A stretch of 64,000 nt of DNA, taken from assembly GCA_041649175.1 (NCBI GenBank), contig JBAZNR010000001.1, positions 450,332 to 514,331 on the forward strand, written 5' to 3'. A program made the translations under genes and the position numbers. Below are positions 10,238 to 30,542 of the stretch, in pieces. Within the stretch, counting starts at the first letter, position 1, and the number at the start of each line of letters is the position of its first letter. This stretch comes from Candidatus Omnitrophota bacterium. Lineage in GTDB: Bacteria; Omnitrophota; Gorgyraeia; Zapsychrales; JBAZNR01. The notes under the pieces were generated by a model, which was not told the DNA's origin, did not search any database, and worked only from the letters and a program-made list of their open reading frames with translations.

Positions 10238-10248
10238 AAAAACTCTCC

Positions 10249-10605: not shown

Positions 10606-10613
10606 AGATCTCC

Positions 10614-13747: not shown

Positions 13748-13758
13748 AAAAAGTCCTT

Positions 13759-15138
13759 TTATTTTTTTGCTGGTGGTTTTGGTAAGTCTTTGATGGAATC
13801 GATGGATCTTTTTAATTCATCTTCAGGCAAATGATATACCTCAAGTTTTTCCGACAAATATTTATCGTAGCCGACCAAATCCATCAGCCCATGGCCGCTA
13901 TAATTGAACAGGATCACTTTTTGTTTACCTTCAGCCTTGGCTTTCTTAGCTTCGTCGATAACACAGGCAATGGCGTGGCTTGTTTCCGGCGCGCAAATGA
14001 AACCTTCGGTCTTCGCCCATAAAAGAGCCGCTTCATAACATTTCACTTGATCAAAAGCTTTCGGCGTCATCAACCCGTCGACAATGGCCTGGCTTACTAA
14101 AGGCGCCATGCCGTGATAACGAAGCCCTCCGGCGTGAATAGGAGCCGGAATAAAGGTATGGCCCAGCGTATACATCGCTAAAAGCGGTGTTGTTCCGGCG
14201 ACATCACCAAAATCATAGGTAAAAAGCCCGCGAGTCATTTTGGGGCAAGCGGTTGGTTCTACCGGAATAATTTCGATTTTTTTACCGTTGATCTTATCTT
14301 GTGTAAACGGAAACGCAAGTCCCGCAAAATTACTTCCGCCGCCGGCGCATCCAATAACAACATCCACTTTTTTCTCACCGGCCATCACCATTTGTTTTTT
14401 GGCTTCAAGCCCGATGATGGTTTGGTGCAAAAGAACATGATTTAAAACACTGCCCAAGCAATATCGGGTTTTTCCGGACTTATCACCGACCGCCGCTTCA
14501 ATGGCTTCACTGATGGCAATGCCAAGACTGCCCGGAGTATCAGGCATTTTCTTTAAGATCTCCCGGCCAATGGCCGTTTCCGTACTTGGGCTCGCCACAC
14601 AATTGCCGTTCCAAATTTGCATCATGGTTTTACGCATCGGTTTTTGCTCAAAGCTGACGCGCACCATAAAAATTTTGCATTCCAACCCCAACAAAGAACA
14701 AGAAAACGCCAAAGCGCTGCCCCATTGCCCGGCGCCGGTTTCCGTTGTTAAGCGTTTTATTCCGAATTGTTTGTTATACCAAACTTGCGCAACCGCCGTA
14801 TTGGTTTTGTGGCTTCCCGCCGGTGAAACACTTTCGTCTTTGTAGTAAATGCGCGCGGGAGTTTTTAAATATTCTTCTAAATAGCGGGCCCGGCGCAGTG
14901 GGCTGGGGCGCCAGCGATAAAGAATTTCTAGGATTTCTTGGGGAATATCGATCCAGCGTTTGGTACTTACTTCCTGCTCAATTAAATTCATCGGAAAAAC
15001 CGCCGAAAGCATATCGGGAGTTATCGGATTTCCGTCGGGGCCAAGCGGAGGCAAAGGCTGCGAGGGCAGATCGGCCGCCAGGTTATACCATTTTTTCGGG
15101 ATGTCTTTTTCTTTGAGGTAAATTTTTAGTTCTTTCAC
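13759..15138 (-). CDS. trpB: Tryptophan synthase beta-like PLP enzyme, TrpB2 type
   Basis: 459 aa. It has a long N-terminal extension and 'SHKTNTAVAQ' (the PLP lysine motif). The 459-aa length is typical of TrpB2. It has a GTG start with SD AAAGGAG. Confidence 0.85.
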   Translation of the reverse strand: MKELKIYLKEKDIPKKWYNLAADLPSQPLPPLGPDGNPITPDMLSAVFPMNLIEQEVSTKRWIDIPQEILEILYRWRPSPLRRARYLEEYLKTPARIYYKDESVSPAGSHKTNTAVAQVWYNKQFGIKRLTTETGAGQWGSALAFSCSLLGLECKIFMVRVSFEQKPMRKTMMQIWNGNCVASPSTETAIGREILKKMPDTPGSLGIAISEAIEAAVGDKSGKTRYCLGSVLNHVLLHQTIIGLEAKKQMVMAGEKKVDVVIGCAGGGSNFAGLAFPFTQDKINGKKIEIIPVEPTACPKMTRGLFTYDFGDVAGTTPLLAMYTLGHTFIPAPIHAGGLRYHGMAPLVSQAIVDGLMTPKAFDQVKCYEAALLWAKTEGFICAPETSHAIACVIDEAKKAKAEGKQKVILFNYSGHGLMDLVGYDKYLSEKLEVYHLPEDELKRSIDSIKDLPKPPAKK

Positions 15139-15168
15139 TTTTTTAAACTCCTTTGATCTCGTGTGTAG

Positions 15169-16056
15169 TTATTTAGGAAATATTTCTTTGGGCTCCATAT
15201 GGGCAATGACTTCCGTAACGCCGGGAATAGCTTTCTGAATAGCATCTTCAATATCATGGCTTATTTTATGCGCATCCTCTAAGGTCATTTTAGAATTAAC
15301 GAGGACGTGCAGATCGATATAAATGTCGTCGGAGCGCCCGCGGGAACGGATGCGGTGGCACGACTCAACCCCTTTGACACTTAAAACGATCTTTTCAATA
15401 TCTTTAACATTAACGATCACCACAGTATCGCATAAAACTTCAGAGCTTTGTTTAATGATCTCATAAGCTGAATAAGCGATGAAACATGAGATGAGCAAAG
15501 TGACGATCGGGTCAATAATGGGATATCCCATTTTCATAACAATGATCGCCACAATAACAGAAAAAGACGTAAAGATATCTGCCTTGGTATGAATGGAATC
15601 GGAAACAAGAATGTCGCTTTTGAGGATTTTCCCGTGATTATATTCAAAGTTCATCACCACAAGATTCACAATGATAGTAACGAACATCACGATAAAAGCC
15701 CGGTCATCGAGCTGTGGAATAATAGGATGATAAAACCGTCCCACGGCATCTTTGATAAGGTTAAAGCAGACAAAAAGCAGTAAAACGCCTATCCCTAAAG
15801 AAAAAAGCGTTTCATATTTTTTGTGGCCGTAAGGATGGTCTTTATCCCGGGGCTGAGAAGCCACCGCAATACCGATCAGCCCCATAAGATTCGAAATTCC
15901 GTCGGAGAGAGAATGAAATCCGTCTGCCGTAATACTAGCCGAACGGCTCCAAAGGCCGTAAAAGATCTTGGCCAAGGCAACCGCCCAATTCAGCAGTAAA
16001 ACAACAATTAAAACAAATCGTATTTTAGCGTAGTGTTCGCTTGTTTTTTTACTCAT
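15169..16056 (-). CDS. Cation diffusion facilitator (CDF) family metal-efflux transporter
   Basis: Six-TM CDF core (…SITADGFHSLSDGISN…HPYGHKKYE…) with a C-terminal cytoplasmic domain. The ORF-track start at 16155 is GTG; the internal ATG at 16054-16056 (MSKKTSEHYAK) was chosen. The start is uncertain. Confidence 0.75.
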   Translation of the reverse strand: MSKKTSEHYAKIRFVLIVVLLLNWAVALAKIFYGLWSRSASITADGFHSLSDGISNLMGLIGIAVASQPRDKDHPYGHKKYETLFSLGIGVLLLFVCFNLIKDAVGRFYHPIIPQLDDRAFIVMFVTIIVNLVVMNFEYNHGKILKSDILVSDSIHTKADIFTSFSVIVAIIVMKMGYPIIDPIVTLLISCFIAYSAYEIIKQSSEVLCDTVVIVNVKDIEKIVLSVKGVESCHRIRSRGRSDDIYIDLHVLVNSKMTLEDAHKISHDIEDAIQKAIPGVTEVIAHMEPKEIFPK

Positions 16057-16230
16057 GGAAGATAAAAAGTTTGGCCCAAATTTTGCCTTACACAAAATTT
16101 GGGCTACCTCGGCAACCACAATTAAATCTCTTCGAGATTTAATTGGCCGACCCACGCCTTCGGCATGGGCGGGTTTTTTCTGCTGAAAAACCCGGGTGAG
16201 GGATATTATACTAAAGGGATAAAAAAAGTG

Positions 16231-18111
16231 TTAATGTTCTTTTGTCCGATGTTCATCTTCCTTAGAACCATCACCCGTGACCCATGTCCACTTCATTGGA
16301 TAGACATCGGGGTCAAACATCACAAAATATCCGTGCCAAATAAGGATCGCCAAGCAGGCCAAAACCGCTTCATAGTAATGAATAGCCGCGATCACATCGT
16401 AAAGCCATTTAGGGAAATAATGTAAAAACCAATTTTCCCAAAGCATCAATCCTCCGGTTAAAACCATGATCATCGAGCCCCACACTAAAGCCCAATATTC
16501 AAATTTCTCAACGTATCCGTAAAATCCAAATATAGGTCTTTCTTTGCGCCACCCAAAATAATAAGCGAACATTTGCCCGCATTGGATAAAATCTTTTTTG
16601 CGCAAAATAAGGGCATTAAGATGATGCCGTCCTTTTTGCGTGAATAAAACATACACGACATGATACAGCGATAAAACGCAAAAGATAAGCGCGGCCGCGC
16701 GATGCCCGAGGCTGCGCCAATCAACCCGCCCAACGAAAGGACTGGCCCACCAGGCTTGAGGATATTTTAAAGCAAATCCGGTATACGCTAAAGCGATGAA
16801 AGCCGTCAGCAAAATAAGATGCTGAATGCGCTCATTAGTTGACATGCGTTTGGGTTTTCCCAAAGAAGACATTCTTTGATAATGCGCCCGCAGCTTCTTT
16901 ATAAAATCGAGGCAATTGTGAAGAAATAGAAATCCGATCACGGCAATGATCAAAATAATATAAAACCGGCTGACAAAAAAACCGGCTTTGTTTTCCAAAC
17001 CTGATTTTCGGCTGGTATGGATCTTGCCCTTCGCTACTTGTTCGCTCACCCCCGCGTGGCATTTACCGCAGGTCTGCTCTAGATTCTTAGGATTGACGGA
17101 AGAATTGCTGTCGCTTACGGGCAATATATCGTGAAAACCATGGCACGACGCGCAGTTGGCGGTAATGACCGAACCCAGCTTGATGGCGAGCCCGTGGTAA
17201 CTTTGCATAAATGTATCGACGACATTATTGGGCAAACTATATTTTGTGGTGATGCGCTCAACCGCGTGGCATTGTCCGCAAGTTTCTGTAATATGCGCCG
17301 GAGCAACCTTTGAGGTGATCTTTTTGACTTCTTCAATAGAATGTTCTCCGTGACAATCGGTACACACGGGCGCTTCTCTTTTTCCTTCTCTAACAGCTTG
17401 CCCGTGAATACTGCGCATATACGTCATCTGAACGTTTTCGTGGCATTTTCCACAGGTGGTGGGGATATTTTTCCAAAATAATTTTGAATCTTCATTGGTG
17501 GCTTTACTTAATGCGTGGGAACCGTGGCAATCGGTGCACACGGCCGCCTGGATAAGATGGCTTCCCTCGACGGCCATTCCGTGAACGCTATGTTCATAGG
17601 AAGAAACCGGCTCCGCAATATTGAGGTTAAATTTCTTCATCTCTTCGGTCTTTTCATGGCAATGCGCGCAAGTTTTGGGAATATTTTCCCGGTAAACAGG
17701 AGAGACAAGATTGCGGGAATTAAGAAGTTCGTGCGGATTTCCATGACAGCTTTGACAAGTAGCCGCTTCGGTAACGCCATGGCCTAAAGCCTTGCCGTGA
17801 TCGCTATTTAAATAAAGCTCGGTTTCAATGCGATGGCAGCTTCCGCAACTGACGGGTTTTAGTTTTTCTTCGTGCGGGACTTCCACAATGTCCGAATGGC
17901 AACTGATACATAAATTTCCGCCGTGAATAGACGATTTGAATTTTTCCGGATCGACAAAAGGTGTGGCTTCGGGGTCGCTGTGGCAGGTAAAACAAGTTTC
18001 ATTATCAATAACTTCTTTTTCTTCGCCGAACGATTGCGCGGAAACGCTCAAAAAACAGCAAAGAATAAAGAAACAGATCTTAAAGTTTTTGGTCGTAAGA
18101 AAATTTTTCAT
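16231..18111 (-). CDS. CbcL-like inner-membrane quinol-oxidoreductase-type cytochrome: 11-haem c-type periplasmic domain fused to a dihaem cytochrome-b (HydC/FdnI-like) membrane domain
   Basis: A signal peptide is followed by 11 CXXCH motifs (CFTCH, CISCH, CGSCH, CQSCH, CAHCH, CTDCH, CGKCH, CTDCH, CGQCH, CASCH, CGKCH). A C-terminal ~230-aa segment has 4-5 TM helices with conserved His residues (…HRAAALIFCVLSLYHVVYV…IAAIHYYEAVLACLAILIWHGY…), as in Ni/Fe-hydrogenase/formate-dehydrogenase b-type cytochromes. Confidence 0.8.
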   Translation of the reverse strand: MKNFLTTKNFKICFFILCCFLSVSAQSFGEEKEVIDNETCFTCHSDPEATPFVDPEKFKSSIHGGNLCISCHSDIVEVPHEEKLKPVSCGSCHRIETELYLNSDHGKALGHGVTEAATCQSCHGNPHELLNSRNLVSPVYRENIPKTCAHCHEKTEEMKKFNLNIAEPVSSYEHSVHGMAVEGSHLIQAAVCTDCHGSHALSKATNEDSKLFWKNIPTTCGKCHENVQMTYMRSIHGQAVREGKREAPVCTDCHGEHSIEEVKKITSKVAPAHITETCGQCHAVERITTKYSLPNNVVDTFMQSYHGLAIKLGSVITANCASCHGFHDILPVSDSNSSVNPKNLEQTCGKCHAGVSEQVAKGKIHTSRKSGLENKAGFFVSRFYIILIIAVIGFLFLHNCLDFIKKLRAHYQRMSSLGKPKRMSTNERIQHLILLTAFIALAYTGFALKYPQAWWASPFVGRVDWRSLGHRAAALIFCVLSLYHVVYVLFTQKGRHHLNALILRKKDFIQCGQMFAYYFGWRKERPIFGFYGYVEKFEYWALVWGSMIMVLTGGLMLWENWFLHYFPKWLYDVIAAIHYYEAVLACLAILIWHGYFVMFDPDVYPMKWTWVTGDGSKEDEHRTKEH

Positions 18112-18123
18112 GGATCTAAAGGA

Positions 18124-19623
18124 TCAGTTTCCCGTGTGGCAATCGGTGCAATTCATTTCTTTCCAGCTTTCATCTTCATTGAATGGATGGCGAAACGTTA
18201 AACCATCCGTGCTTTTTTCTATGGATGAAGCCGTGCCCTGCTCAATGATGGAGTGGCAGCTATTGCAGTTTTTGGTAATTGTTTTACCGCTTGCGGCCGC
18301 ATGTTGATCGTCGTGACAGCGAAAACATCCCGGAGAAACCAAATGCCCGATATTATCCGGATAAATATCCCATCGTGCTTTTCGTTCCGGAAAAATATTA
18401 TTTTTAAATAAAATAACGATCTCGTCGGCGGACTTTTTAATATCTTCTTGATGTGATTGATAAAATTCGGGGTGTTTATTTTGATAATATTCCAGAATCG
18501 TTTTAGGAATAGCCTGGAGCGCTTCTTGTTCGGTTTTATACGGCTTAGATAGAACTTCCATGGCTTTACTTTTGATCGATGGGATCTGTGGGTTTATTTT
18601 GCCGTCATTCATCGCCCGATTGATCAAGTCAAATGGAGGTTCAAAGCGATGCGAGGGGCGATTATGACAATCCATGCAATCCATCTTGCGCACAAGGCTT
18701 TGAGGCGGTTCTTTATCTTTATAGGGCGAATCGGGCGTTGTAAAGATCTCTTCTTTGCCGTCTTTGCCAATAGTTTTAACCCAAGAGATCACCTGGCGTT
18801 TTTGATCATCGGCCACGTAATAAACATCCTGATCAACATACATATGCGAATGAATGCCGTAATCTTTCTTTTCGTCCCGGCCGACGTGGATCAGCATACG
18901 CAAAGACCACGGGTCGGGCTGGTCGGCTTCCGTGGAACGGTATGTCCGGCGCAGTTCCACAGAACTATAGAATTTTCCCGGCCAGTGGCATTGTTCGCAT
19001 GTTTCTGCCGATGGACGCAAGTTTTGGACCGGCGTGGGAATAGGTTTGGCATAATCATTTTTTATGGTGTGATAAACTTGGCGCAAGCCGGAAAGTTTTG
19101 ATTTTACGTACCAGTTGGCGCCAGGCCCGATGTGGCATTCCACGCATTTAACGCGAGCATGCGGCGAATTAAGATAGGTAGCATATTCGGGTTTCATCAC
19201 ATCGTGACAGGTCACTCCGCAAAAATGGACCGATTCGGTATAGTGAAACGCCTTATAAGAACCGATAATGGTCATCACCATTAAAATGGATGTTCCGATC
19301 AGAAAAACAAAAATAGCATTGCGGTGAGTGGGAATAGCGGGATCAATGAAAAGCGTTTTGGGCGCGGATTCTGAAATTCCTTTTAAAATTCGCTTGTGTT
19401 TCCAGGCTGCCCCCAAAGGAATTAAGATAAGCCCTAAAATAAGAAAGGGCGGGAGAAAAACATAGGTGAGAATGCCTAAATAAAAATTAGCGCCGTTGGT
19501 AAAGAAATCAATGCCGAACAGAAGGCATTCGATAATAAATACCAGAAGCGCTAAGGCAACACCGCCGTAAGTTATGCGGTTATAAAAATAATCGGAAAAT
19601 TTATGTTTCTTTTCTGTGGGCAT
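18124..19623 (-). CDS. ImcH-like inner-membrane multihaem c-type cytochrome (3 N-terminal TM helices, NapC/NirT-like region, 7 CXXCH)
   Basis: 499 aa. Three predicted TM helices are followed by CGVTCH, CVECH, CEQCH, CMDCH, CFRCH, CNSCH and CTDCH. The architecture matches the Geobacter ImcH description. Confidence 0.75.
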   Translation of the reverse strand: MPTEKKHKFSDYFYNRITYGGVALALLVFIIECLLFGIDFFTNGANFYLGILTYVFLPPFLILGLILIPLGAAWKHKRILKGISESAPKTLFIDPAIPTHRNAIFVFLIGTSILMVMTIIGSYKAFHYTESVHFCGVTCHDVMKPEYATYLNSPHARVKCVECHIGPGANWYVKSKLSGLRQVYHTIKNDYAKPIPTPVQNLRPSAETCEQCHWPGKFYSSVELRRTYRSTEADQPDPWSLRMLIHVGRDEKKDYGIHSHMYVDQDVYYVADDQKRQVISWVKTIGKDGKEEIFTTPDSPYKDKEPPQSLVRKMDCMDCHNRPSHRFEPPFDLINRAMNDGKINPQIPSIKSKAMEVLSKPYKTEQEALQAIPKTILEYYQNKHPEFYQSHQEDIKKSADEIVILFKNNIFPERKARWDIYPDNIGHLVSPGCFRCHDDQHAAASGKTITKNCNSCHSIIEQGTASSIEKSTDGLTFRHPFNEDESWKEMNCTDCHTGN

Positions 19624-19646
19624 ATTTTATTACGTAGAAATTCTTT

Positions 19647-19705
19647 AAAAGGTGCTTTGGCGCGGCCTTATAAAGCCGCGCCAAAGCACCTTCTTTTTCT
19701 ATTTT
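19647..19705. terminator. Bidirectional rho-independent-terminator-like hairpin (19-bp perfect stem) between the beta-barrel gene and the ImcH-like gene
   Basis: The sequence aaaaggtgctttggcgcggc-cttataaa-gccgcgccaaagcacctt is followed by a T-run (ctttttctattttt) on the plus strand and by an A/T-rich tract on the minus strand. Confidence 0.45.
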
Positions 19706-19728
19706 TATTCTAACAACGTTTTTTTATT

Positions 19729-21783
19729 TTACCACGTAAACTTTGTATCCAACCAAACAACATGGGCGCTGTAGTTTCCGTAGCCGTCCGTTGCAAAAAG
19801 ATCACCCGGATTTGCCTTATAGGAATAGTATCCGTAATGAGGTTCCAGCGTAAGATCTTTTTTAGGAGACCACCTTGCTCCTAACGTAATATCGTACGCT
19901 TCGCTATTGACCCCATACGGCATACCAACCCACCCATGAGAATCGAAATCGTTAGTTGTCGAATATTGAGCGCTGCTATAAAAACTCAAATTTTCTTTAG
20001 GCGCGTAACTGGTTGATAAAAGCAACGTATAGACATCGGCAACATAAACAGGAACTCCTCCGCCGCTTACGGCCGTTTGCGATGCCGGCGTTGAGACTTT
20101 GAACTGATTTAACGACGCCCCAACATTAAACATCCACTCATCCAAAGGCTGCACAGAAATATCGTAAGTATACACCCTTGAATTGGCATTGCTTTTGATC
20201 CAATCTCTTTGCGGCGTTACAACAGGAGTCGATTGAACTTGGTAAACCGTATCAGCTAACTGCACGCGGAAAGAATTCTGAAACCATTTGGTCGGCTTCC
20301 AAACAAGCCGATTGTTCCACTCATCTGATTTGGTCCGAATCCTTGAAATACTCACCGCATTGTCATTATTTTGATATATGTCGTAGGTGTTGCGGTCCGA
20401 CTTGAGTCTAACATTCGAAGTCATATTGACCTTATTATTAAAAACATAACGAATGCCCATGACCCCTGTCGATTCAGGATTAGTATCTAAATACTCCGTA
20501 TAGCTCGTTCCCAGAGCAGCTTTTGAATTCCAGCTTCGCGTCTGTTGAAAATCCCAATCCGTATAAAGACTGGTTTTAGACCAACCAGTATAATTCAAAG
20601 AGAGTGATTCGCCGGTGCGGGTTATCTGATTTTCGGTAACATCCGCCTTATTGGAACCACTTAAAAACCCTTGCCTAAAACCAAAACCGGTTGAAGCAAT
20701 AATTTCTTGTTTCAATTTTGTACTGAAGTTTAGATCCGGTGTCAAATTCGTGGCAAAATGCTCAACCCAAGAATGTGAATCGCGGCTAGCCCATCCATCC
20801 ACAACACCATTATGACTGCTTCCCGTAGGAAGGCCTGTTGTTGAATCAAAGGCTAAGATCGTTTCCAGCATGTCGCTCTTTGAATTCTGGAATTGATAGC
20901 CAAAAGAAACATATGTTTTGTCATTCATCATCCAGCGATCTGCCCTCAGCGATGAAACTAATTGCTTGGATCTGGGTTCTTGTGTGGTGCGAACATATTC
21001 CGTGCTGTCATTATCTTCCCTCATCGTGCGTCCTGAATAAAACTCAGCTTTTTGCTTGCCCTTAACGTTAAATCCGGCAACATTCACATTTCCTTTGATC
21101 TCGATAGCATCGATGGCCGTTGAGACGTCTTGCCAGGCAGGGTTTATTTTACGAGTAACTCCTTCAACAACATCGCCCCACGTTAGCCTGCTTTTTGTTC
21201 CTTCTTTGGTATCACGCCGATAGCTTAAGGCTATCCCGGGTTCGCTTTCAACATTGCTTCCTGCTTCAAAAAAGAAATGCCCTATATCCAATGCCGGATC
21301 GAGGGGTAATTTAGAAATAGACTGTCCTCCGAAATTGGTATAAAAACCTCCATAAACATCATACCATTTGCGAAAATTCCCATAATCCAACGTCACGTAG
21401 TTGCCGTTACCCTTAACAAGATTAAGATTAGCGTCAAAATCATTGTCACCAGAAATGACGTGTCCCTGAAAAGACAAGTGGTCACCATTACCCAGATCAC
21501 CCTCAAAGGTCATATCTTTAATTCCGGTGGCTGTCCCGTCATTCATCCAATTTAAAGCACGGAATTTCGCCGCATCTCCTTTGACGCTGACATAACGAAG
21601 AGGCATAAATTCAAAATTGTCCAATTTAAACTTTTGAGTAAAATCGCTGATGTCCTGATTGAACAACTTTTTTAAGGTTTCCGTTAATGTGCCGGCAAAA
21701 ACATTTGTTTGGCCCAAGCCAAAAACCAGCATAAAGATCGTCAGCAGGACCGGGCTGAAATCCTTTAAAATATGTTTTTTCAT
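19729..21783 (-). CDS. Large outer-membrane beta-barrel protein, MtrB/PioB/MtoB-like porin partner of the upstream multihaem cytochrome
   Basis: The ORF track gives 19729..21828 with a TTG start. The likely start is the ATG at 21781-21783 (MKKHILKDFSPVLLTIFMLVFGLGQTNVFAG, a signal peptide) with SD AAGGAGGTG. The mature protein is ~660 aa, Cys-free, and has a pervasive amphipathic beta-strand pattern. It ends in the C-terminal aromatic 'TKFTW'. Its position is immediately downstream of an MtrA-family cytochrome. Confidence 0.7.
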   Translation of the reverse strand: MKKHILKDFSPVLLTIFMLVFGLGQTNVFAGTLTETLKKLFNQDISDFTQKFKLDNFEFMPLRYVSVKGDAAKFRALNWMNDGTATGIKDMTFEGDLGNGDHLSFQGHVISGDNDFDANLNLVKGNGNYVTLDYGNFRKWYDVYGGFYTNFGGQSISKLPLDPALDIGHFFFEAGSNVESEPGIALSYRRDTKEGTKSRLTWGDVVEGVTRKINPAWQDVSTAIDAIEIKGNVNVAGFNVKGKQKAEFYSGRTMREDNDSTEYVRTTQEPRSKQLVSSLRADRWMMNDKTYVSFGYQFQNSKSDMLETILAFDSTTGLPTGSSHNGVVDGWASRDSHSWVEHFATNLTPDLNFSTKLKQEIIASTGFGFRQGFLSGSNKADVTENQITRTGESLSLNYTGWSKTSLYTDWDFQQTRSWNSKAALGTSYTEYLDTNPESTGVMGIRYVFNNKVNMTSNVRLKSDRNTYDIYQNNDNAVSISRIRTKSDEWNNRLVWKPTKWFQNSFRVQLADTVYQVQSTPVVTPQRDWIKSNANSRVYTYDISVQPLDEWMFNVGASLNQFKVSTPASQTAVSGGGVPVYVADVYTLLLSTSYAPKENLSFYSSAQYSTTNDFDSHGWVGMPYGVNSEAYDITLGARWSPKKDLTLEPHYGYYSYKANPGDLFATDGYGNYSAHVVWLDTKFTW

Positions 21784-21805
21784 TGAGTTCACCTCCTTTA
21801 TTTTT

Positions 21806-22567
21806 TTATTCACGTAAATGCCGATCAAAATATGACCCGTGTGGTGCTGTATGACATCCGGCGCTCCAACATGATCCTTGAAGATTGCGTGTATTATGAT
21901 TACTGTTTCCTATTCTAGGAAAGTTTGCTTGGACGTGACAACGCAAACACAAATTGTTATCTCTGGCAACCAACATTTTATCCGTAATAGACCCATGAAC
22001 CTTATGACAGCTCGTGCATCCATCGCGTAAGGCCTGATGCTCCCACGGAAACGGTCCTTGCTGGTCTTTATGGCATTTAAAACAAGTTTCATTGACATCT
22101 TCCATGCTGGTCGCTGTCCATGGCCGGCTGTCACTGCCATGCGCATTATGGCAATCAGAACAGCTCATTTTTCCTTCCAGGACAGGATGACGATAAGGAA
22201 GTTTGAATTCCATCTTTTTTTCCGTATGACAGGTAAAACAGGCTTCCGGATTTTTGTCGGGATTAACCATCGTTCCTCTGCCGCCGCCGTTTTCAACGTG
22301 AATACTGCCCGGGCCATGGCACATTTCGCACCCTTGGGCCTCGATCTCATCTCCTTTTACTTCTATCCTGGAATGAGTTGAAAGTTGATACTCTCGATTT
22401 TCTTTTTCATGGCACGAGGCGCACGTTTCGCTGCCAACGTAGGTAGCGCCTTTCATGCTGGGAAGAATATTGTTCATCTCCTGTGCCGCTTCAACCCTTA
22501 ATCCAAAAAATAATAGCGACAAAACACCAAGAATCTGGCAAATCCTTAAAAGCCATTTTCCGGCCAT
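21806..22567 (-). CDS. Periplasmic multihaem c-type cytochrome of the MtrA/MtoA/PioA/DmsE family (7 CXXCH + 1 CX4CH)
   Basis: The start is the ATG at 22565-22567 (signal peptide MAGKWLLRICQILGVLSLLFFGLRVEAAQE) with SD AAGGAGGG. The ORF-track N-extension overlaps the upstream gene. The motifs SCSDCHNAHGS, ETCFKCHKDQQGPFPWEHQ, GCTSCHKVHGS, LCLRCHVQ and SCWSAGCHTAPHGS align with conserved MtrA blocks (TCSDCHNPHGS, DTCYSCHAEKRGPKLWEHA, NCVTCHNPHGS, LCQQCHAS, SCLNCHSQVHGS). Confidence 0.8.
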   Translation of the reverse strand: MAGKWLLRICQILGVLSLLFFGLRVEAAQEMNNILPSMKGATYVGSETCASCHEKENREYQLSTHSRIEVKGDEIEAQGCEMCHGPGSIHVENGGGRGTMVNPDKNPEACFTCHTEKKMEFKLPYRHPVLEGKMSCSDCHNAHGSDSRPWTATSMEDVNETCFKCHKDQQGPFPWEHQALRDGCTSCHKVHGSITDKMLVARDNNLCLRCHVQANFPRIGNSNHNTRNLQGSCWSAGCHTAPHGSYFDRHLRE

Positions 22568-22624
22568 AAGACAACCCTCCTTTTTTCGTAAATCTGAAAT
22601 TTGATTTATGATAACTGTTGTCAT

Positions 22625-22897
22625 TTATTGGGTCGCCTCCGGGGCCTTGCCAACTTTTTGATATGTTTCAGCCGTCGGTTGCGGATTTTCTTTAATAACC
22701 TTTTGGCCATATTCGCTCAACTCATGCATGCCGTCATCTTTTTTTGGCATTTTATCGGTATGGCAGGCAATGCATTTAGGTGATTCTCCGGGAAAAGCCT
22801 CTTTATATACTTTGATCTCTTTCATATCAGCTTGCGCCGCAACAGCCCATCCTAGAATAATAACAGCGGTTAAAAGAAATAAGTGTTGATGTTTCAT
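22625..22897 (-). CDS. Small periplasmic monohaem cytochrome c (MtoD-like position)
   Basis: 90 aa. A signal peptide (…GWAVAAQA) is followed by a single CIACH. SD GGGAGGAAGG is present. It lies immediately upstream of the MtrA-like gene, with only a 1-nt gap. Confidence 0.75.
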   Translation of the reverse strand: MKHQHLFLLTAVIILGWAVAAQADMKEIKVYKEAFPGESPKCIACHTDKMPKKDDGMHELSEYGQKVIKENPQPTAETYQKVGKAPEATQ

Positions 22898-22929
22898 TGT
22901 GCCTTCCTCCCTTAAAGATTATGAAAAGA

Positions 22930-24522
22930 TTATGATGTTTTTAAACTTTTCCTTATGCCGACAAAGGCAAAAAAAGCCGCCTCAAAAATAAGATAATAAA
23001 CGATCCAAGCGCTTTGACCCGCGCCAAAACCATAGCTATGCAGGCCCTTTCCTAAAATAAAATTCACACCGTACCATGTCATAAGAACTAAAAGAAATCC
23101 CAAAATAGCGCCGACAGCCAAGGCCTTATTGCTTAATTTTCCGGCGTGACGAAAATGAACAATGACCATATATCCTAAAAAGGTAATGAGCGCCCAGGTT
23201 TCTTTAGGATCCCATCCCCAAAACCGCCCCCAGGATTCATTAGCCCAAACGCCGCCTAAGATCGTTCCGATCCCAAGAGCGATCAACCCTGCCTGCAGTA
23301 AACGATTAATCATATGCGCCGAAACGGCTTCGCTATTTTCGGAAAACTTTCCTAAAGCGTTTAAGAAAAGATGCCGGTGGCCTAAGGCCATGGCGAGCCC
23401 AAAAATACCATAACTGGAAACGATCGTTAACACATGAATGGCCAGCCAATAATTGCTTTTGAGAACCGGGACTAAAACATCCAAAGATTTTTCTACCGGG
23501 AGAAGGTCGGCAAAGATCATGACCAAAGCCCCGGTTAAAGCCGCCACCGATAAAACGAAATATTGCTTTTTAGATAAAAAGAAAATAAAGGCACCGGCCA
23601 CTAAGATCCAATTCATAAAAATGATCGACTCATACATGTTGGACACCGGTGGACGCCCTAAAATAATAACCCTCAGCAAAAGCCCCGCTGAATGAAATAA
23701 AAATCCAGCTAAAACCAGCGTAACGCCTGTCATGCGCAATAAAGATTTCGAACTGAAAAAAGATACAAAAATAAAAGCGATCAGATATAAAACCCATGCC
23801 CACAAAAAAGGTTTGAGCTGATAATAAATATTTTCCAGGTAGACATAAGGCGCGAATACTTCCGGCGAATGCCGTTCAATATCTCTGCTCCACTGCCCGG
23901 CGAGCCCAACAAAATCTAAAGATCCCTTGGAATATAAAAGTGTCAGGACCCTGAAATTTTCTGCCAGTAATCCGGACGTCTTATAAGGAGATTCCCATTC
24001 TAAAGTGGCCGTGGGAATGGTTTTAATATATTCTTGCGCAGCCAGATCATCGACGGTTAAAAGGCGCGTATAAAGCAATTCGGCCGCTTGCTCCGTAGAC
24101 GTAAGCGTTAATTCGCGTTGGCGTTTGTCTTTCGCGCTTTGGATCAGCGTCAATAATAGAGGAACACAGCTTTTAAGCTCTCGATAGGAGAAATATTTCT
24201 TATCCGCGGAAAGGTCGACGGCTTTTTTTAATTCCAGATGATCGACGCGGATAAATGGAATTTCCAGAAACTTCTTCGGATCATGAAGATTTTTAAAAAT
24301 AACCGAAACAGCCGGCTCTTGACCCCAGGTTTCTTTCCCGGAAATAAGCCGCAAGGTTTCCCGGGAAAAAACATCGAATGATTTAATGCGCCCGTTATGC
24401 TGAATGGGAATTTTCCCGGCGGCGCGAGGCATTACATCGGTTGCGCCACAAGAACAAAGCGAAAAACATATTGTTCCCAGGGCCATCAAACATAAAGCAC
24501 TTTTTTTGATTCTCGTTACCAT
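22930..24522 (-). CDS. ccsA: Cytochrome c biogenesis protein CcsA/ResC (system II haem-handling, WWD domain) with N-terminal periplasmic extension
   Basis: 530 aa. The tryptophan-rich WWD motif 'WGRFWGWDPKETWALITFLGY' is present, with conserved His residues in flanking TM helices. Confidence 0.85.
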   Translation of the reverse strand: MVTRIKKSALCLMALGTICFSLCSCGATDVMPRAAGKIPIQHNGRIKSFDVFSRETLRLISGKETWGQEPAVSVIFKNLHDPKKFLEIPFIRVDHLELKKAVDLSADKKYFSYRELKSCVPLLLTLIQSAKDKRQRELTLTSTEQAAELLYTRLLTVDDLAAQEYIKTIPTATLEWESPYKTSGLLAENFRVLTLLYSKGSLDFVGLAGQWSRDIERHSPEVFAPYVYLENIYYQLKPFLWAWVLYLIAFIFVSFFSSKSLLRMTGVTLVLAGFLFHSAGLLLRVIILGRPPVSNMYESIIFMNWILVAGAFIFFLSKKQYFVLSVAALTGALVMIFADLLPVEKSLDVLVPVLKSNYWLAIHVLTIVSSYGIFGLAMALGHRHLFLNALGKFSENSEAVSAHMINRLLQAGLIALGIGTILGGVWANESWGRFWGWDPKETWALITFLGYMVIVHFRHAGKLSNKALAVGAILGFLLVLMTWYGVNFILGKGLHSYGFGAGQSAWIVYYLIFEAAFFAFVGIRKSLKTS

Positions 24523-24533
24523 ATTTTTATTCC

Positions 24534-26246
24534 TTACGCGTTTTCCGGCCTTCGTGAAAACGGCTTAACATAAAATTGTAGAAAAGCTCCGGCAAAAATA
24601 ATGATCGAACTAGTATAGATAAGGCTAATGCCGGGATTTTTGGCAATGGTAAAAACAGATCCTTCTTTTTCATTAGGGTTTTGCATGAACGAAGATTGAA
24701 AGATGCGAAATCCCCGGTAATCAAACGGTTGATTCATGGCGATCGTCTTCTCCAGGCGAATATTTTCCTGTTGGTCTTCCACGGTCACATCACTTTCAAA
24801 CGATGCCGGACGGTTCGTTCCGGGATAATCTACTTTTCGAAAATCTTTAAGCGTCAAAGAGAAGGGCACTTGTTTTTGCGCCGGAATAATAGATACGAAA
24901 AGATCGTTCTGTCCGACAGAGATCTTTTTTTCTTCCCCTTCTAATACCCATATTGGAGAATTCCCGTTTTGATGATTGATGACGACCTTGGCGGCCAATG
25001 CGCCCTCACCGGGAACATCCACGGCGGTTATCTCATGGGAAACCAAGGCATGCGTATATAATTTTTCAACCCGCGCTAACATATCTGCCCACCCTAATTC
25101 GATAGTTTCCCCGGAATGAACAGCTCCTTTTTTTATGATCTCCTGCGCGGACATAGATTGGTATTGAAATTTTCCATCGGGATCAATGAAAAAATTTAAA
25201 GAAGGCCCGCCATAGGATTGCTCTTCCTTAGCGCCGGGAACATCAAGATCGATGACAATATCAAATTCATTTTGAGATGTTTGATGATGCATCGATTCAA
25301 AATCAGGAAACAAGGCAAATCGAATGTAATGACGTGCTCGCCCTTGGCCGTCTACCGCGTCAAATTCAACCGCCGGATTAAGAGAACCGCTTTGAGGCGC
25401 ATTGACCAGCTTGTGTTCGGAAACTCTGGCATACGGATAATACTGAAGCCCTTTGATGGTCAATCCTTTTTGCTTCAACGGAATTTCTTTAGGCGCCGGC
25501 TGATTAAGATCAAGGACCGTTAATATTTCCCCGGATTTTTCCGCGATCGTTAATGTCGGGCTTTGCGTGGAAATTTTTTCTTCTTTTTTTCCTAAAGAAA
25601 CCTTTAAAGGCCCAAAAAACTGCACGGCAGAAGACAAATGCCCTTGATCGCCTTCGATAAGCCAAAACGCCTGATCAACTCCCATCGACGGGCTTTTTAA
25701 GGTGACCTGTAAGGCATTTTGAGCCGGATTTTGAACGGTTCCTTCTCGGACGATCAGTTGGGGCGCGGCATGTTCGATAATATCTTTCACGATCATCGTT
25801 TCGTTCTTTTCAGCACCGTTTAAAATATGTTCACCCTTGCGTAGATCAAAAACATGTTCAGCCTTGCCGGGCACAACCACACTAAGACTGTATCCGCCGA
25901 GCCTTATTGTATTGGCTGTTTCTCCTTCTCGTAAAGCCATCTGGCCTTCAACGGCCAACAAACGCGTCAACAAAGACCCTAAAAGCAATCCTAAAATACC
26001 AATATGAGTAATGAGAAATCCTGTGTGATACTTTTTAAAAGGAATTCTCAAGATCGTTGAACAAAAGATATTGATCCAAAGCAAAGATAAAAGTGCGTCA
26101 AACCATTTCGTTTGATAAAAAGTTTTCTGAGCGAACGGTGTTCCGTGCATCGATTCCATAACGGTTGCCACGATCAAAAGCGCCATTAAGCTCGCACAAA
26201 TAAAAGCCGTAAAAGAAAGGGATCCTAATTTTTTAACGAGCCACAT
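24534..26246 (-). CDS. ccsB: Cytochrome c biogenesis protein ResB/CcsB/Ccs1 (system II)
   Basis: The N-terminus has TM helices and a conserved His (…VMESMHGTPFAQKTFY…), followed by a large periplasmic domain and a C-terminal TM. The likely start is the ATG at 26244-26246 (MWLVKKLG…) with a GGAG SD. The ORF-track extension to 26288 overlaps hemA. Confidence 0.85.
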   Translation of the reverse strand: MWLVKKLGSLSFTAFICASLMALLIVATVMESMHGTPFAQKTFYQTKWFDALLSLLWINIFCSTILRIPFKKYHTGFLITHIGILGLLLGSLLTRLLAVEGQMALREGETANTIRLGGYSLSVVVPGKAEHVFDLRKGEHILNGAEKNETMIVKDIIEHAAPQLIVREGTVQNPAQNALQVTLKSPSMGVDQAFWLIEGDQGHLSSAVQFFGPLKVSLGKKEEKISTQSPTLTIAEKSGEILTVLDLNQPAPKEIPLKQKGLTIKGLQYYPYARVSEHKLVNAPQSGSLNPAVEFDAVDGQGRARHYIRFALFPDFESMHHQTSQNEFDIVIDLDVPGAKEEQSYGGPSLNFFIDPDGKFQYQSMSAQEIIKKGAVHSGETIELGWADMLARVEKLYTHALVSHEITAVDVPGEGALAAKVVINHQNGNSPIWVLEGEEKKISVGQNDLFVSIIPAQKQVPFSLTLKDFRKVDYPGTNRPASFESDVTVEDQQENIRLEKTIAMNQPFDYRGFRIFQSSFMQNPNEKEGSVFTIAKNPGISLIYTSSIIIFAGAFLQFYVKPFSRRPENA

Positions 26247-27297
26247 AGGATTTCTCCGATGGATTAAGCTTTGATGCTTCTGCGACACGAATTTTTTCTA
26301 TTTTGGCGTAAAATTCATCAATTTTTTTAGCGATGATCTTTTCAACCTCTTCAACCGCCAAGCGGCGGCGGGCAATATTATGCTCCACGGCTTTATCGAG
26401 ATCGTCGACGGATAACAAAGAAACATTTTCTATAAAAGCAATATCAGGATGAATATTGCGCGGCATAGAGATATCGATCAAAACTAACTTTTGTTTCGCG
26501 CGTGCCGGCATAATTTGATCGATCAGGTCTTTTTCTAAAAGATACTGCGGAGCGCTGGCCGAACAAATGCAGACATCAACTTTGGCCAGGATATTTTTAA
26601 GCTCAAGGAAGGAAACCGCTTCGGCGCCAAATTCATTGGCCACGGCGCAGGAATTTTCATGTGTACGGCTCATGACATAAATCTTACTGGCGCCTTTTTC
26701 TTTTAGATGGCTCACCGCCAAATGCCCCATTTTCCCGGCGCCGATGATCAAAACAGATTTATCCTGAAGGGTCCCCAATAAATGTTGCGCCATCGTGACC
26801 GCCGCCCAGCTGACCGATGACCCACCGCAACCGATGGCCGTTTCACTCTGAGCTTTTTTCCCGGCGCGAATAACGATCTGGGACAGAACATTGAATTCTT
26901 TTTGCAGCATTGCTTTGGCGCGGGACAATTCTACCGCTTCTTTGATTTGCCCTAACACTTGTTTTTCTCCTAAGATCAGAGAATCAGCTCCCGTTGAAAC
27001 GCGTAAAAAATGCTCCAGCGCTTCTTTGCCCTGATAGGAATAAAAATATTTCTGAACATCCGTCCCCATAGAGATCTTTTTGATACGGCAAAGATGGTCG
27101 AGCAAAATACCAACATTCTCGTCGATAAGATGAGCGCAGATTTCCGTGCGGTTGCAGGTCGAAAGAACAATGGCTTCTATAATACGAGGATCGTTTTTAA
27201 ATTCATTAAGCAAAAGCGTGCGTTCATTTAAATTGAGATGGAACTTTTCCCGTATCTCGATAGGTGCTGTCTTATGATTAATTCCGCAAAGGATCAT
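26233..27297 (-). CDS. hemA: Glutamyl-tRNA reductase
   Basis: The likely start is the ATG at 27295-27297 (MILCGINHKTAPIEIREKF…), aligning with the canonical HemA N-terminus. The catalytic 'LSTCNRTE' and the NADP-binding 'LIIGAGKMG' are present. The ORF-track N-extension (to 27462) is non-homologous. Confidence 0.85.
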   Translation of the reverse strand: MILCGINHKTAPIEIREKFHLNLNERTLLLNEFKNDPRIIEAIVLSTCNRTEICAHLIDENVGILLDHLCRIKKISMGTDVQKYFYSYQGKEALEHFLRVSTGADSLILGEKQVLGQIKEAVELSRAKAMLQKEFNVLSQIVIRAGKKAQSETAIGCGGSSVSWAAVTMAQHLLGTLQDKSVLIIGAGKMGHLAVSHLKEKGASKIYVMSRTHENSCAVANEFGAEAVSFLELKNILAKVDVCICSASAPQYLLEKDLIDQIMPARAKQKLVLIDISMPRNIHPDIAFIENVSLLSVDDLDKAVEHNIARRRLAVEEVEKIIAKKIDEFYAKIEKIRVAEASKLNPSEKSYVAR

Positions 27298-27889
27298 GTT
27301 TCTTGCAAACCTTTTTAATTTCCCGAAGGATAAAATTTTTCTCAACCAAATGCAGATCTTCGTCGGCTGCTTTGTGGATTTGTTCGCTTTCCGCGCGCAC
27401 GTGATGGCGCAAAAGGCACATAAGATACGTCCCTTTTTCTTTGAGCTGTTCGATGATCTCAAAACGCCTGTTTTCCGTTTTGGCGTTTTTTAACTGCTCA
27501 AATAGCACAATAAATGATCTTAAATTAGATTTAAACTCTCGGTGGTCGATCTTGAAAATCTTAATGGCCGGGCTAAGCCGCGGAATATGGGTGGCGACGA
27601 ACGGAAAAAGGATGCGCTCATCGAGATCCATGTGCGGCAACAATGTTTTTTGGAAGAATTTTAAAATTTCCGCTATGCTTTTGATGTTGCGCCCTAAAGA
27701 AACTTTGCCTTCATAACGTAAATTGACCAAAAACTGCAGAAGTTGTTGGGATTTTTTTAAGACCTCTTTATGACAATGTTCTAAAGATGTGGTCACGCCT
27801 ACGCGATTTTTATGCACCATAAAAAAGCCGCTCCTATTTTTCGTAACATTATAAGAGACAGTGTGTTTTGTGTCTGTGATATCCATCAC
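27278..27889 (-). CDS. Hemerythrin-like (HHE cation-binding) domain protein (tentative)
   Basis: 203 aa with several His/Glu-containing helical segments (…LEHCHKEV…HMDLDERILFP…HREF…RHHVRAESEQIH…) consistent with a hemerythrin-like fold. The assignment is weak and the start is uncertain. It overlaps the hemA start by 20 nt. Confidence 0.4.
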   Translation of the reverse strand: MMDITDTKHTVSYNVTKNRSGFFMVHKNRVGVTTSLEHCHKEVLKKSQQLLQFLVNLRYEGKVSLGRNIKSIAEILKFFQKTLLPHMDLDERILFPFVATHIPRLSPAIKIFKIDHREFKSNLRSFIVLFEQLKNAKTENRRFEIIEQLKEKGTYLMCLLRHHVRAESEQIHKAADEDLHLVEKNFILREIKKVCKKHDPLRN

Positions 27890-27920
27890 ATAAACCTAAA
27901 ATCTTGTTTTTTCCATAAAC

Positions 27921-28619
27921 TTAAGAAAGGTGTTTTTCCAGGCCGTTTTTGTTAAGAATAACGATCTGCTTTGGTTTGATCTCGATCAATTTCTTGCGTT
28001 TAAATTCATGCAGGTGGCGGGCGACTGTTTCGCGGCTTGAGCCGATACGATGGGCTATTTCTTCCCGGGTAAAGGGAAGAGAGACAAGGTTTTCTTGAGT
28101 ACGTAAAGCGACATTATTACCGTGTAGGTCCAAAAGGAATTTCGCCAGCCTTTTTTTGGTATCGTCCAATGATACTTTTTCGATCAAAGAACTGAATTTC
28201 GATAGGCGTTCGGCAAAGATCCGGTTTAGAGTATGCGTGAGCTGCGAGCTGACCTTAACTAAGCGAACATAATCTTCCCGGGATAAAAACCATACCTGAC
28301 ACGTCGTTAGGGCTTCGGCGGAAGAGGAACAGCACCACTGCGTCGCCCCGGGATTACAAGCACACGTATCTCCGCCTTCCAAAACCTCCAGGATCTGTTC
28401 CCGGCCGGATGATGCCGTACGAAAAACCTTAACCCTGCCGGAGCGAATAACAAAGACACGCTCACAAGGCTTGCTGTCATAAAACAAGAGCTCGCCTTTT
28501 TCATATATCTTTTCTTTGATGCAGGATCGTAAAAGTTTAAGCTCTTTAGAAGAAAGGCCCCGGAAAAGGCCGATATCTTTTAAGGCAGGAGAGAAAGATT
28601 TCTTATCGTGGTTTGACAT
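27921..28619 (-). CDS. Crp/Fnr-family transcriptional regulator (cNMP-binding domain + C-terminal HTH)
   Basis: 232 aa. A beta-roll effector domain is followed by the HTH 'REEIAHRIGSSRETVARHLHEFKRK'. An unusual Cys cluster 'GDTCACNPGATQWCC' lies in the effector domain. Confidence 0.85.
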   Translation of the reverse strand: MSNHDKKSFSPALKDIGLFRGLSSKELKLLRSCIKEKIYEKGELLFYDSKPCERVFVIRSGRVKVFRTASSGREQILEVLEGGDTCACNPGATQWCCSSSAEALTTCQVWFLSREDYVRLVKVSSQLTHTLNRIFAERLSKFSSLIEKVSLDDTKKRLAKFLLDLHGNNVALRTQENLVSLPFTREEIAHRIGSSRETVARHLHEFKRKKLIEIKPKQIVILNKNGLEKHLS

Positions 28620-28873
28620 AATTTTTTAGCGGTCTTTATCCTACTATTGAAATATGTAATTTTCAATTATTTTTCTGTATGTTTTTCTTCTCGATCCGTC
28701 GATAAGTTTTGCGTAAATTCACACACTGCGTTCATAGATTTTCACAAAGATTTAACAATACCGTCACACATATTTCTCACCAACACGGTATTTTAAAGGC
28801 ACTTTATCTTTTTATGGTTTGATAAATTTTCTTGGGCCTGTTTTCGCAGAAAACAGGCCCGATTTAAACCTTG

Positions 28874-30539: not shown

Positions 30540-30542
30540 TTT

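Follow-up and report, generated by a model that had tools for sequence, protein, structure and literature searches.

Can a bacterium of the phylum Omnitrophota pass respiratory electrons through its outer membrane? The question is raised by a block of cytochrome genes in a 64,000-nucleotide stretch from a Candidatus Omnitrophota bacterium (contig JBAZNR010000001.1 of assembly GCA_041649175.1, positions 450,332 to 514,331), hereafter called the window. In our open reading frame (ORF) reading, ten minus-strand genes share one orientation at 16231-28619, and an earlier note on this DNA had proposed that seven of them encode a conduit running from the inner to the outer membrane. We consider it probable, though well short of certain, that the block from 28619 to 16231 encodes a self-contained respiratory electron conduit for outward extracellular electron transfer (EET). 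What the sequence data show directly are the gene content, the homology or architecture of each part, the predicted fold of an outer-membrane barrel, a conserved synteny, and natural fusions between two of the cytochromes. The ten genes, a hairpin within the block, and the gene that follows it are listed here.

27921-28619, minus strand: Crp/Fnr-family regulator (Pfam cNMP_binding and HTH_Crp_2)
27278-27889, minus strand: hemerythrin-domain protein (PF01814); overlaps the start of hemA
26233-27297, minus strand: hemA, glutamyl-tRNA reductase (TIGR01035, 331.9 bits, over cutoff)
24534-26246, minus strand: ResB/CcsB, system II cytochrome c maturation (PF05140, E 2.6e-23); overlaps the stop of hemA
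22930-24522, minus strand: CcsA (ResC), system II haem-handling subunit (PF01578, E 3.3e-33)
22625-22897, minus strand: periplasmic monohaem cytochrome c of 90 residues (signal peptide, single CIACH)
21806-22567, minus strand: octahaem MtrA-family periplasmic cytochrome of 253 residues (phmmer match to 6R2Q_A)
19729-21783, minus strand: Cys-free outer-membrane beta-barrel of 684 residues (26 strands in the model; putative structural counterpart of MtrB)
19649-19692, no strand: palindromic hairpin in the spacer between the barrel gene and imcH (18 bp, 12 of them GC)
18124-19623, minus strand: putative ImcH-type inner-membrane heptahaem quinol dehydrogenase of 499 residues (three transmembrane [TM] segments, CX3CH and six CXXCH)
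16231-18111, minus strand: putative CbcL/MtoC/MtrH-type fusion of 626 residues (signal peptide, 11-haem domain, dihaem cytochrome b domain)
15169-16155: CDF transporter (TIGR01297, 231 bits; below every equivalog cutoff, FieF and MamM/MamB included)

All seven of the co-oriented ORFs described in the earlier note were present. Gene starts were refined by Shine-Dalgarno context and by the gene calls on an identical public Logan contig, and those of hemA (27297), resB (26246), the MtrA-like gene (22567), and the barrel gene (21783) moved inward. Intergenic gaps range from -20 to +57 nt, the sole exception being the 105 nt between the barrel gene and imcH. The gene for the Crp/Fnr-family regulator ends 31 nt before the next gene, and promoter-like sites lie ahead of it at 28638-28694, in a divergent intergenic region. 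Thus, the block is operon-like, and the regulator is probably its first gene. The module is carried on the leading strand, 15-27 kb from the probable replication origin.

The monohaem protein carries one CXXCH, the MtrA-like protein seven CXXCH and one CX4CH, the ImcH-like protein six CXXCH and one CX3CH (seven motifs in all), and the CbcL-like protein 11 CXXCH, while the barrel has no Cys. Together, the four cytochrome ORFs hold 25 CXXCH and two atypical motifs within ~6.7 kb. A CXXCH scan of the 64-kb window found no multihaem ORF beyond those of the module, and a single CXXCH in just one further ORF. Moreover, when a single genome was scanned for each GTDB species, 13 loci emerged besides that of the window (L002 to L014). 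The motif density, together with the same gene order in these 13 other species-level genomes, rules out a chance pattern. Six of the 13 record titles name Omnitrophota; the other seven loci (L002, L003, L007, L009, L010, L013, and L014) come from ENA third-party records of metagenome-assembled genomes (MAGs) that are titled "uncultured Planctomycetales/Planctomycetia" and are probably mislabelled Omnitrophota. L005 begins at the barrel gene, and L010 is truncated within it.

The octahaem protein matched MtrA of the Shewanella baltica Mtr complex (6R2Q_A) in phmmer with an E value of 2.5e-29 and 106 bits. Query residues 122-265 aligned to MtrA 176-324, and query residues 63-163 aligned to MtrA 62-168; the C-terminal five-haem half aligns well, and the N-terminal half aligns more weakly, with an overlap in the query that would fit a lost two-haem unit. 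Paired_CXXCH_1 was matched at E 7.9e-25, and the curated decahaem models scored under their cutoffs (TIGR03508, the DmsE family, 164.2 against 192.2; NF041028, 174.1 against 325). The final motif is CWSAGCH, with the family pattern C[WFY]S[AGS]GCH, and all eight motifs are kept in 12 relatives, the last one as CX5CH in L002. These alignments establish true homology of the octahaem protein to MtrA. The MtrA-family assignment of the earlier note therefore stands, and the protein carries eight haem motifs, compared to the ten of the decahaem family.

Directly upstream of the octahaem gene, in most loci as in the window, lies the gene for the small cytochrome with the single haem motif that the earlier note had reported. 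In the window, this gene has a strong Shine-Dalgarno sequence. The monohaem protein had no match in Pfam, in NCBIfam, or among PDB sequences, where no MtoD entry appeared at E<=10. In L008 (8695-9870) and L011 (8689-9882), a monohaem domain is fused to the N terminus of the octahaem protein; it shows 33-35% identity, with pairwise E values of 2e-8 and 2e-9, and is joined by a linker of ~100 residues rich in Pro, Ala, Glu, and Asp. Because of this Rosetta-stone fusion, we argue that the monohaem cytochrome is a direct redox partner of the conduit. From its operon position and the octahaem fusion, we propose by analogy that it acts as an MtoD-like shuttle or as an entry haem for the conduit.

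The barrel gene follows the octahaem gene after 22 nt. The barrel protein had no Pfam or NCBIfam match at E<=0.01, PF11854 (MtrB_PioB) included; none of 10 distant barrel relatives scanned matched PF11854; and a 16-sequence barrel profile searched against all PDB sequences gave no match even at E<=10, MtrB included. An AlphaFold2 model built from the 16-sequence alignment (pLDDT 80.5, pTM 0.70) formed a 26-strand barrel. This model superposes on MtrB (6R2Q) over 541 residues, with 26 strands in both structures and 13-14% identity, and Foldseek returned MtrB as its best structural match (E 1.2e-13, TM-scores of 0.58/0.61), with others at ~0.4. Thus, a model of medium confidence supports the barrel as a structural counterpart of MtrB. 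The predicted 26 strands give the width needed to sheathe a multihaem cytochrome, and the N-terminal CXXC that is reportedly a signature of MtrB in metal-reducing Gammaproteobacteria is absent from this Cys-free protein. Accordingly, the Cys-free barrel and its likeness to MtrB, both claimed in the earlier note, were borne out at the level of structure, and the PF11854 match by which the note had suggested recognizing it was not obtained.

An exhaustive profile search assigned at least 785 clusters at 50% identity to the barrel family, 306 of them at E<=1e-30, and repeating the homologue search with a diverse barrel alignment again returned the same 39 Omnitrophota proteins and was uninformative as to further names and taxa. 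The barrel gene comes directly after the MtrA-like gene in the window, in 12 of the 12 Omnitrophota loci with an upstream flank, and in three distant relatives. In the readable contexts, each of these three distant members follows a gene for a Paired_CXXCH cytochrome of 190-275 residues; one of the contexts, from a Verrucomicrobia MAG, holds two cytochrome-barrel pairs in tandem. Barrel relatives of ~800 residues (P0116, P0120, P0127, P0135, P0146, and P0188) carry an N-terminal monohaem domain of the PSCyt1 (Planctomycete cytochrome c) type, found in 6 of 6 scanned. These fusions resemble Cyc2 in joining a cytochrome to a porin, yet their barrel is of the 26-strand class. The neighbors of P0127 are an MtrA-like gene and a gene for a cupredoxin/Ig-repeat protein. 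Homology between the monohaem protein of the window and the PSCyt1 domain of the distant barrels was unsupported (pairwise E 0.017 over 27 residues); of the two kinds of fusion, the octahaem fusion alone involves the monohaem family of the window. A more sweeping and, in our judgment, rather improbable reading would make the barrel the founding example of an unnamed MtrB-like sheath family across the PVC superphylum (Omnitrophota, Verrucomicrobiota, and probably Planctomycetota), either diverged from or converged on MtrB, and hard-wired in Omnitrophota to ImcH as a minimal four-protein path (ImcH, monohaem, octahaem, and barrel) by which ultra-small, possibly host-attached cells would exchange electrons directly with minerals, humics, or partner cells.

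The inner-membrane end of the conduit would be formed by the two remaining cytochromes. By the published definition, ImcH measures 495-519 residues, has three TM helices at its N terminus and a CX3CH next to the membrane domain, and contains six CXXCH (Zhong & Shi 2018; PMC6295460). The 499-residue protein of the window has this architecture, with TM-like segments at 22-40, 55-73, and 103-121 and CGVTCH at 135. Its motifs at 135/160/209/316/433/453/492 are spaced by 25/49/107/117/20/39 residues, compared to 24/49/106/117/20/38 in GSU3259 (507 residues; TM helices at 13-35, 45-67, and 100-122; motifs at 132/156/205/311/428/448/486; PMC6295460, Table S3). The N-terminal region belongs to NapC/NirT (PF03264, E 2.2e-12, residues 101-191), and NrfH (2J7A_C) was matched at E 0.0048. 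The family comprises >7,500 matches at E<=1e-10, the closest with 52-72% identity; the named ones among the closest are Omnitrophota proteins annotated "NapC/NirT family cytochrome c," and no Geobacter protein is among the best 120 of the >7,500. Omnitrophica proteins of 505 residues with the same motif positions had been accepted as ImcH homologues by BLAST (PMC6295460), and the published accessions (OGX39360.1 and others) were absent from the nine ImcH-type clusters checked. Among plasmid sequences, the search for ImcH or CbcL relatives gave only short matches to NapC, TorC, and c3. Taken together, the architecture and the published catalogue, with GSU3259 compared by its description, support an ImcH-type protein with seven haems and three TM segments, as the earlier note had read it. 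Identity as NrfH, NapC, or TorC was rejected since the corresponding hidden Markov model (HMM) matches cover ~100 N-terminal residues and fall far under their cutoffs. A role as the NrfH/NapC partner of a nitrite or nitrate reductase, which the earlier note had named among what would undo its proposal, was also rejected, as no nrfA, nap, or other terminal reductase gene lies within 15 kb on either side.

The CbcL-like protein carries its 11 CXXCH in residues 40-352 and a Ni_hydr_CYTB domain (PF01292, E 1.6e-10) at 423-600. In an alignment with FdnI (1KQF_C), the four haem-b ligand histidines are kept as H431, H470, H578, and H593. A multihaem c domain is thus fused to a HydC/FdnI-type dihaem b domain, the arrangement of CbcL, MtoC, and MtrH. 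The count of nine haems in GSU0274 (motifs at 34...257) is not matched by the 11 motifs here, and the spacings of the last three haems are 42/28 residues, compared to 43/28 in GSU0274. The CbcL family ranges from 3 to 23 haems and includes an 11-haem Omnitrophica homologue of 649 residues, OGX07562.1 (PMC6295460). Both the architecture and this published catalogue support a CbcL/MtoC/MtrH-type protein, in agreement with the earlier note.

The five genes at the head of the block encode candidate functions in sensing, haem synthesis, and haem attachment. The Crp/Fnr-family regulator contains an unusual internal Cys-rich insert (CACNPGATQWCC...C; the stretch reads CACNPGATQWCCSSSAEALTTC) that may serve to sense redox state or metals. 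Homologues of the regulator lie upstream of the module in L010 (63% identity), L014 (52%), and L008, and homologues of the hemerythrin-domain protein, a possible sensor or buffer for O2, NO, or iron, occur in L014 and L007. The product of hemA, glutamyl-tRNA reductase, catalyzes the first step of haem synthesis. In L003, L004, L006, L010, L013, and L014, a gap of 10-57 nt separates this gene from the monohaem or octahaem gene downstream, unless the two overlap by a few bases. ResB/CcsB has four TM-like segments. The CcsA translation shows a WWD-type Trp-rich motif, WGRFWGWDPKETW, and scored 167.7 bits with TIGR03144, under the equivalog cutoff of 187.6. With resB and ccsA separated by 11 nt and PF05140 and PF01578 both matched over their cutoffs, the two form a system II (CcsBA/ResBC) pair, which confirms by HMM the ccsBA assignment of the earlier note. 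CcsA also has an N-terminal extension of ~230 residues with one TM segment and no family match, its canonical domain being residues 270-498.

To what extent this gene set belongs together was apparent from the related loci. The conserved core is [hemA]-monohaem-octahaem-barrel-imcH, with hemA usually in the lead. In 10 loci (L002 to L009, L013, and L014), imcH is found right after the barrel gene or within a few kb of it; in L011, it is ~9.5 kb downstream, at the end of the locus, and L012 has no imcH within 10 kb. The ccsBA genes adjoin the core in five loci, in one of them divergently. The CbcL-type fusion is restricted to the window, L005, and L008, where the orthologue shows 63% identity. 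Instead of this fusion, or besides it, L002 (4359-7193), L014 (11975-15381), L008 (12438-14809), and L011 (19124-21492) carry a 9-haem cytochrome together with a bc-complex-type cytochrome b/b6 protein (PF00033), and imcH is the only inner-membrane partner in L003, L004, L007, and L013. Thus, the inner-membrane end of the pathway is modular, and ccsBA and the CbcL-type gene are variable add-ons. Of the single-locus set put forward in the earlier note, the core is conserved, and ccsBA and the CbcL-type gene are not. L011 also contains an alternative-complex-III/Psr-like set at 13139-18132 (5-haem cytochrome, molybdopterin-like subunit, and NrfD), and in L004, a molybdopterin oxidoreductase follows imcH at 7577-10825.

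The 105-nt spacer between the barrel gene and imcH contains the hairpin at 19649-19692, which is terminator-like in both directions. Only ~25 nt separate it from the ATG of imcH, leaving no room for a promoter. The hairpin is probably an attenuator or an mRNA-stabilising element that sets the ratio of outer- to inner-membrane expression. All five spacers longer than 70 nt contain a strong hairpin, namely, those of the window, L002 (2803-2883), L006 (8681-8785), L009 (2886-2959), and L013 (11957-12030), and their sequences are unrelated; what is conserved at this position is structure, not sequence. Spacers of 3-15 nt (L003, L004, L005, and L014) have no hairpin, and the 34-nt spacer of L007, which stands ahead of a relocated monohaem gene, has no predicted structure.

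How the parts would assemble physically, in which order and direction electrons would pass, and what would accept them, we infer as follows. Quinol would be oxidized in the inner membrane by the ImcH-type heptahaem protein, by the CbcL-type 11-haem/dihaem-b fusion, or by both. Electrons would then pass to the 90-residue periplasmic monohaem cytochrome, which in some lineages is tethered to the conduit, and from there into the octahaem MtrA homologue threaded through the 26-strand MtrB-like barrel. As the module contains no MtrC-type surface cytochrome, a surface-exposed terminal haem would pass electrons directly to an acceptor outside the cell or in chelated form, the candidates being Fe(III), Mn(IV), and humic-type quinones. 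By analogy with Geobacter, the two quinol dehydrogenases may serve acceptors of different redox potential. Haem synthesis (hemA), haem attachment (ccsBA), and a putative Crp/hemerythrin sensing pair are co-encoded with the conduit. The inner-membrane-to-outer-membrane conduit envisaged in the earlier note thus holds, carried by the MtrA homology, the barrel model, and the ImcH and CbcL architectures.

Outward flow is favored by the conservation of imcH, given that the 2018 survey encountered ImcH homologues in no organisms other than Fe(III) reducers (PMC6295460). It is also favored by an independent analysis in which FeGenie flagged "metal-reducing cytochromes" in Omnitrophia in 2023 (PMC10066038). 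Several points weigh against our reading of the block. A missing MtrC-type outer cytochrome is typical of the Fe(II)-oxidizing MtoAB and PioAB systems, not of metal reducers. The CbcL/MtoC family occurs in both reducers and oxidizers (PMC6295460). The second quinol dehydrogenase is replaceable or absent in relatives, and the idea of two potential windows is therefore not general. Furthermore, the hairpin could split the block into two transcription units.

Among the alternatives, the one that survives best, though we regard it as unlikely, employs the same hardware with inward flow. Extracellular Fe(II), a mineral, or a cathode-like surface would supply electrons, which would travel via the monohaem cytochrome to the CbcL- and ImcH-type proteins and there reduce quinone, in lithotrophy or redox balancing. 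A monohaem cytochrome, an MtrA homologue, a barrel, and a CbcL-family protein without MtrC make up the mtoDAB-mtoC composition of Gallionella and Dechloromonas (PMC6295460), the presence of the CbcL/MtoC/MtrH family in oxidizers fits as well, and a subsurface survey listed Omnitrophica among the taxa with both iron-oxidation and iron-reduction markers (PMC8478452). However, no other inner-membrane partner is as conserved across the Omnitrophota loci as imcH, which the 2018 survey met solely in Fe(III) reducers (PMC6295460); the window contains no terminal oxidase, nitrate reductase, or reverse-electron-flow genes; and the barrel and the monohaem protein have no sequence relation to MtoB, PioB, or MtoD by PF11854 or by the PDB search at E<=10.

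A role outside EET appears very unlikely. The MtrAB-like pair would then serve a surface or periplasmic terminal reductase from another locus, in the way that Shewanella DmsEF serves DmsAB, or would act in metal detoxification or iron acquisition, with the NapC/NirT-type protein as a generic quinol dehydrogenase. The DmsE family is among the best NCBIfam matches of the octahaem protein, the 499-residue protein is publicly annotated as "NapC/NirT family cytochrome c," L004 and L011 have genes for molybdopterin oxidoreductases a few kb further downstream, and a CDF metal-efflux gene adjoins the module in the window. On the other hand, no reductase gene is found in or near the module of the window, the molybdoenzymes are lineage specific as opposed to the conserved monohaem-octahaem-barrel-imcH core, no related locus has the CDF gene, which is preceded by a promoter-like site of its own, and a three-TM architecture with CX3CH and six CXXCH is specific to ImcH, not to NrfH, NapC, or TorC.

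Cell-to-cell exchange, in which electrons would be dumped onto or drawn from an attached partner whether as direct interspecies electron transfer or as an "electrical" form of epibiosis or parasitism, is given little credence here: most Omnitrophota are ultra-small with host-dependent traits, and conductive-pilin candidates have been predicted in several classes (PMC10066038), a module with no long-reach outer cytochrome would need intimate contact or a soluble mediator, and the module is compact and carries its own regulator, but this support is circumstantial, the class Omnitrophia, which was flagged for metal-reducing cytochromes, has a relatively complete respiratory metabolism (PMC10066038), and the window encodes no adhesion or pilus functions.

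A putative outward conduit of this kind follows a familiar logic. The mtoD-mtoA-mtoB-mtoC loci of Gallionella capsiferriformans ES-2 and Dechloromonas aromatica RCB likewise hold a monohaem cytochrome, an MtrA-family cytochrome, a barrel, and the CbcL-family protein MtoC in one place, also without an MtrC-type surface cytochrome, and the mtrABC-mtrH-cymA cluster of Rhodoferax ferrireducens has the CbcL-family MtrH beside an Mtr conduit (PMC6295460). With MtoC belonging to the CbcL family, a CbcL-type oxidoreductase paired with an Mtr-type conduit is not new. The earlier note, in stating that the two "replace the CymA usually paired with MtoAB" (meaning ImcH and CbcL), claims too much novelty, as MtoC and MtrH already lie inside mtoDAB and mtrABC clusters (PMC6295460). 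Compared to these clusters, which belong to Proteobacteria, the block in Omnitrophota has an MtrA homologue with 8 haems instead of 10, a barrel that fails the MtrB_PioB HMMs, and a monohaem protein without detectable similarity to solved cytochromes such as MtoD; it adds imcH, the conserved partner, and has hemA, ccsBA, and the Crp regulator embedded.

With MtrCAB of Shewanella (6R2Q), the block shares the order of cytochrome and then barrel, and the octahaem protein aligns to both halves of MtrA; it differs in the lack of MtrC/OmcA, two fewer haems, a CX4CH as the last motif, and the Cys-free barrel. Geobacter sulfurreducens ImcH (GSU3259) is alike in length class, in its three TM helices, in the CX3CH next to TM3, and in motif spacings within 1-2 residues, and CbcL (GSU0274) is alike in its signal peptide, periplasmic multihaem domain, and C-terminal HydC/FdnI-type dihaem b domain. 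However, imcH and the CbcL-type gene are adjacent to each other here, beside an Mtr-type conduit, whereas they occupy separate loci in G. sulfurreducens. The Geobacter Pcc conduit OmaB-OmbB-OmcB is said to pair an octahaem periplasmic cytochrome with a porin-like outer-membrane protein; its outer lipoprotein cytochrome is OmcB, and a smaller porin of ~20 strands is predicted for it. The octahaem protein here, by contrast, is an MtrA homologue by its alignment. In Desulfuromonas acetexigens, an adjacency of imcH and cbcL may exist, as deduced from the consecutive accessions TRO80643.1 and TRO80642.1 (PMC12133095). Acidobacteriota and Verrucomicrobiota of peat have Mtr-like porin-cytochrome synteny and Mtr-resembling structures at 8-31% identity (bioRxiv 10.64898/2026.05.27.727921); these, too, are divergent Mtr-like conduits, and the barrel family described here also includes a Verrucomicrobia MAG. 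ImcH, CbcL, and Omnitrophota do not occur in that preprint.

The 2018 survey listed three ImcH and three CbcL homologues in Omnitrophica and stated that no mtrAB or mtoAB genes lie next to imcH (PMC6295460). The Omnitrophota loci contradict the latter statement. Such loci were probably missed because the barrel is invisible to MtrB-seeded sequence searches. Within the literature library that could be searched, no paper links Omnitrophota with ImcH. With regard to the undescribed combination suggested in the earlier note, the adjacency of imcH to an Mtr-type conduit, a conserved linkage, and the unannotated MtrB-like barrel family remain new, whereas the CbcL pairing and the Omnitrophica ImcH and CbcL homologues had been published. 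New as well are the octahaem cytochrome with its CX4CH terminus, the embedded haem-biogenesis genes, and the natural monohaem fusions.

Omnitrophota occur widely in groundwater and sediments, and we know of no isolate. If the module works as proposed, part of this phylum gains a defined path for respiring extracellular acceptors, and marker genes would allow it to be tracked; if the PVC-wide reading of the barrel were true, EET would be central to the energy metabolism of a major phylum without cultured members. Public records call the barrel a "hypothetical protein" and the ImcH-type gene "NapC/NirT family cytochrome c," and because of this annotation gap, surveys based on PF11854 or on METABOLIC-style mtrB searches will miss these conduits. 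The compact core and the natural fusions offer a small system for studying the handover from a quinol dehydrogenase to an Mtr-type conduit, and the core is a candidate for transplantation into engineered hosts.

The immediate neighbors of the module were also considered. The earlier note had placed hemA directly upstream and a CDF transporter directly downstream; both are there in the window, and hemA is usually conserved, but the CDF gene was found in 0 of the 13 related loci. It lies 75 nt downstream of the module and has a sigma-70-like site of its own with 11 of 12 matching positions at 16234-16205. Given this absence and the strong promoter-like site in front, the CDF transporter was rejected as a member of the module. 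A magnetosome link through its weak resemblance to MamM/MamB was rejected as well, as it scored 117-138 bits where the cutoffs are 350 and mam genes were not found. On the other side, divergent from the cytochrome block, a polyphosphate cluster occupies 28986-34053 (ppx/gppA, ppk1, a CHAD-domain protein, and an HD/Ppx-domain-III protein); ppx-ppk also neighbors the module in L013, so that the local synteny is kept.

Elsewhere in the window, in the neighborhood of the probable replication origin, gyrA, gyrB, dnaN, and dnaA on the minus strand are followed by yidC on the plus strand (35150-45540). Cumulative GC skew reaches its lowest point near 42 kb, where gene orientation switches, and GC content is low (0.36-0.37) at 40-46 kb. 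DnaA boxes were not significantly enriched (19 matches compared to 13.9 expected), and a single perfect box lies at 41609-41617. tRNA genes for Glu (35007-35081), Cys (50249-50321), Leu (50480-50564), and Val (51393-51469) are present, and a 6S RNA (RF00013, 57.8 bits) is encoded on the plus strand at 61096-61252.

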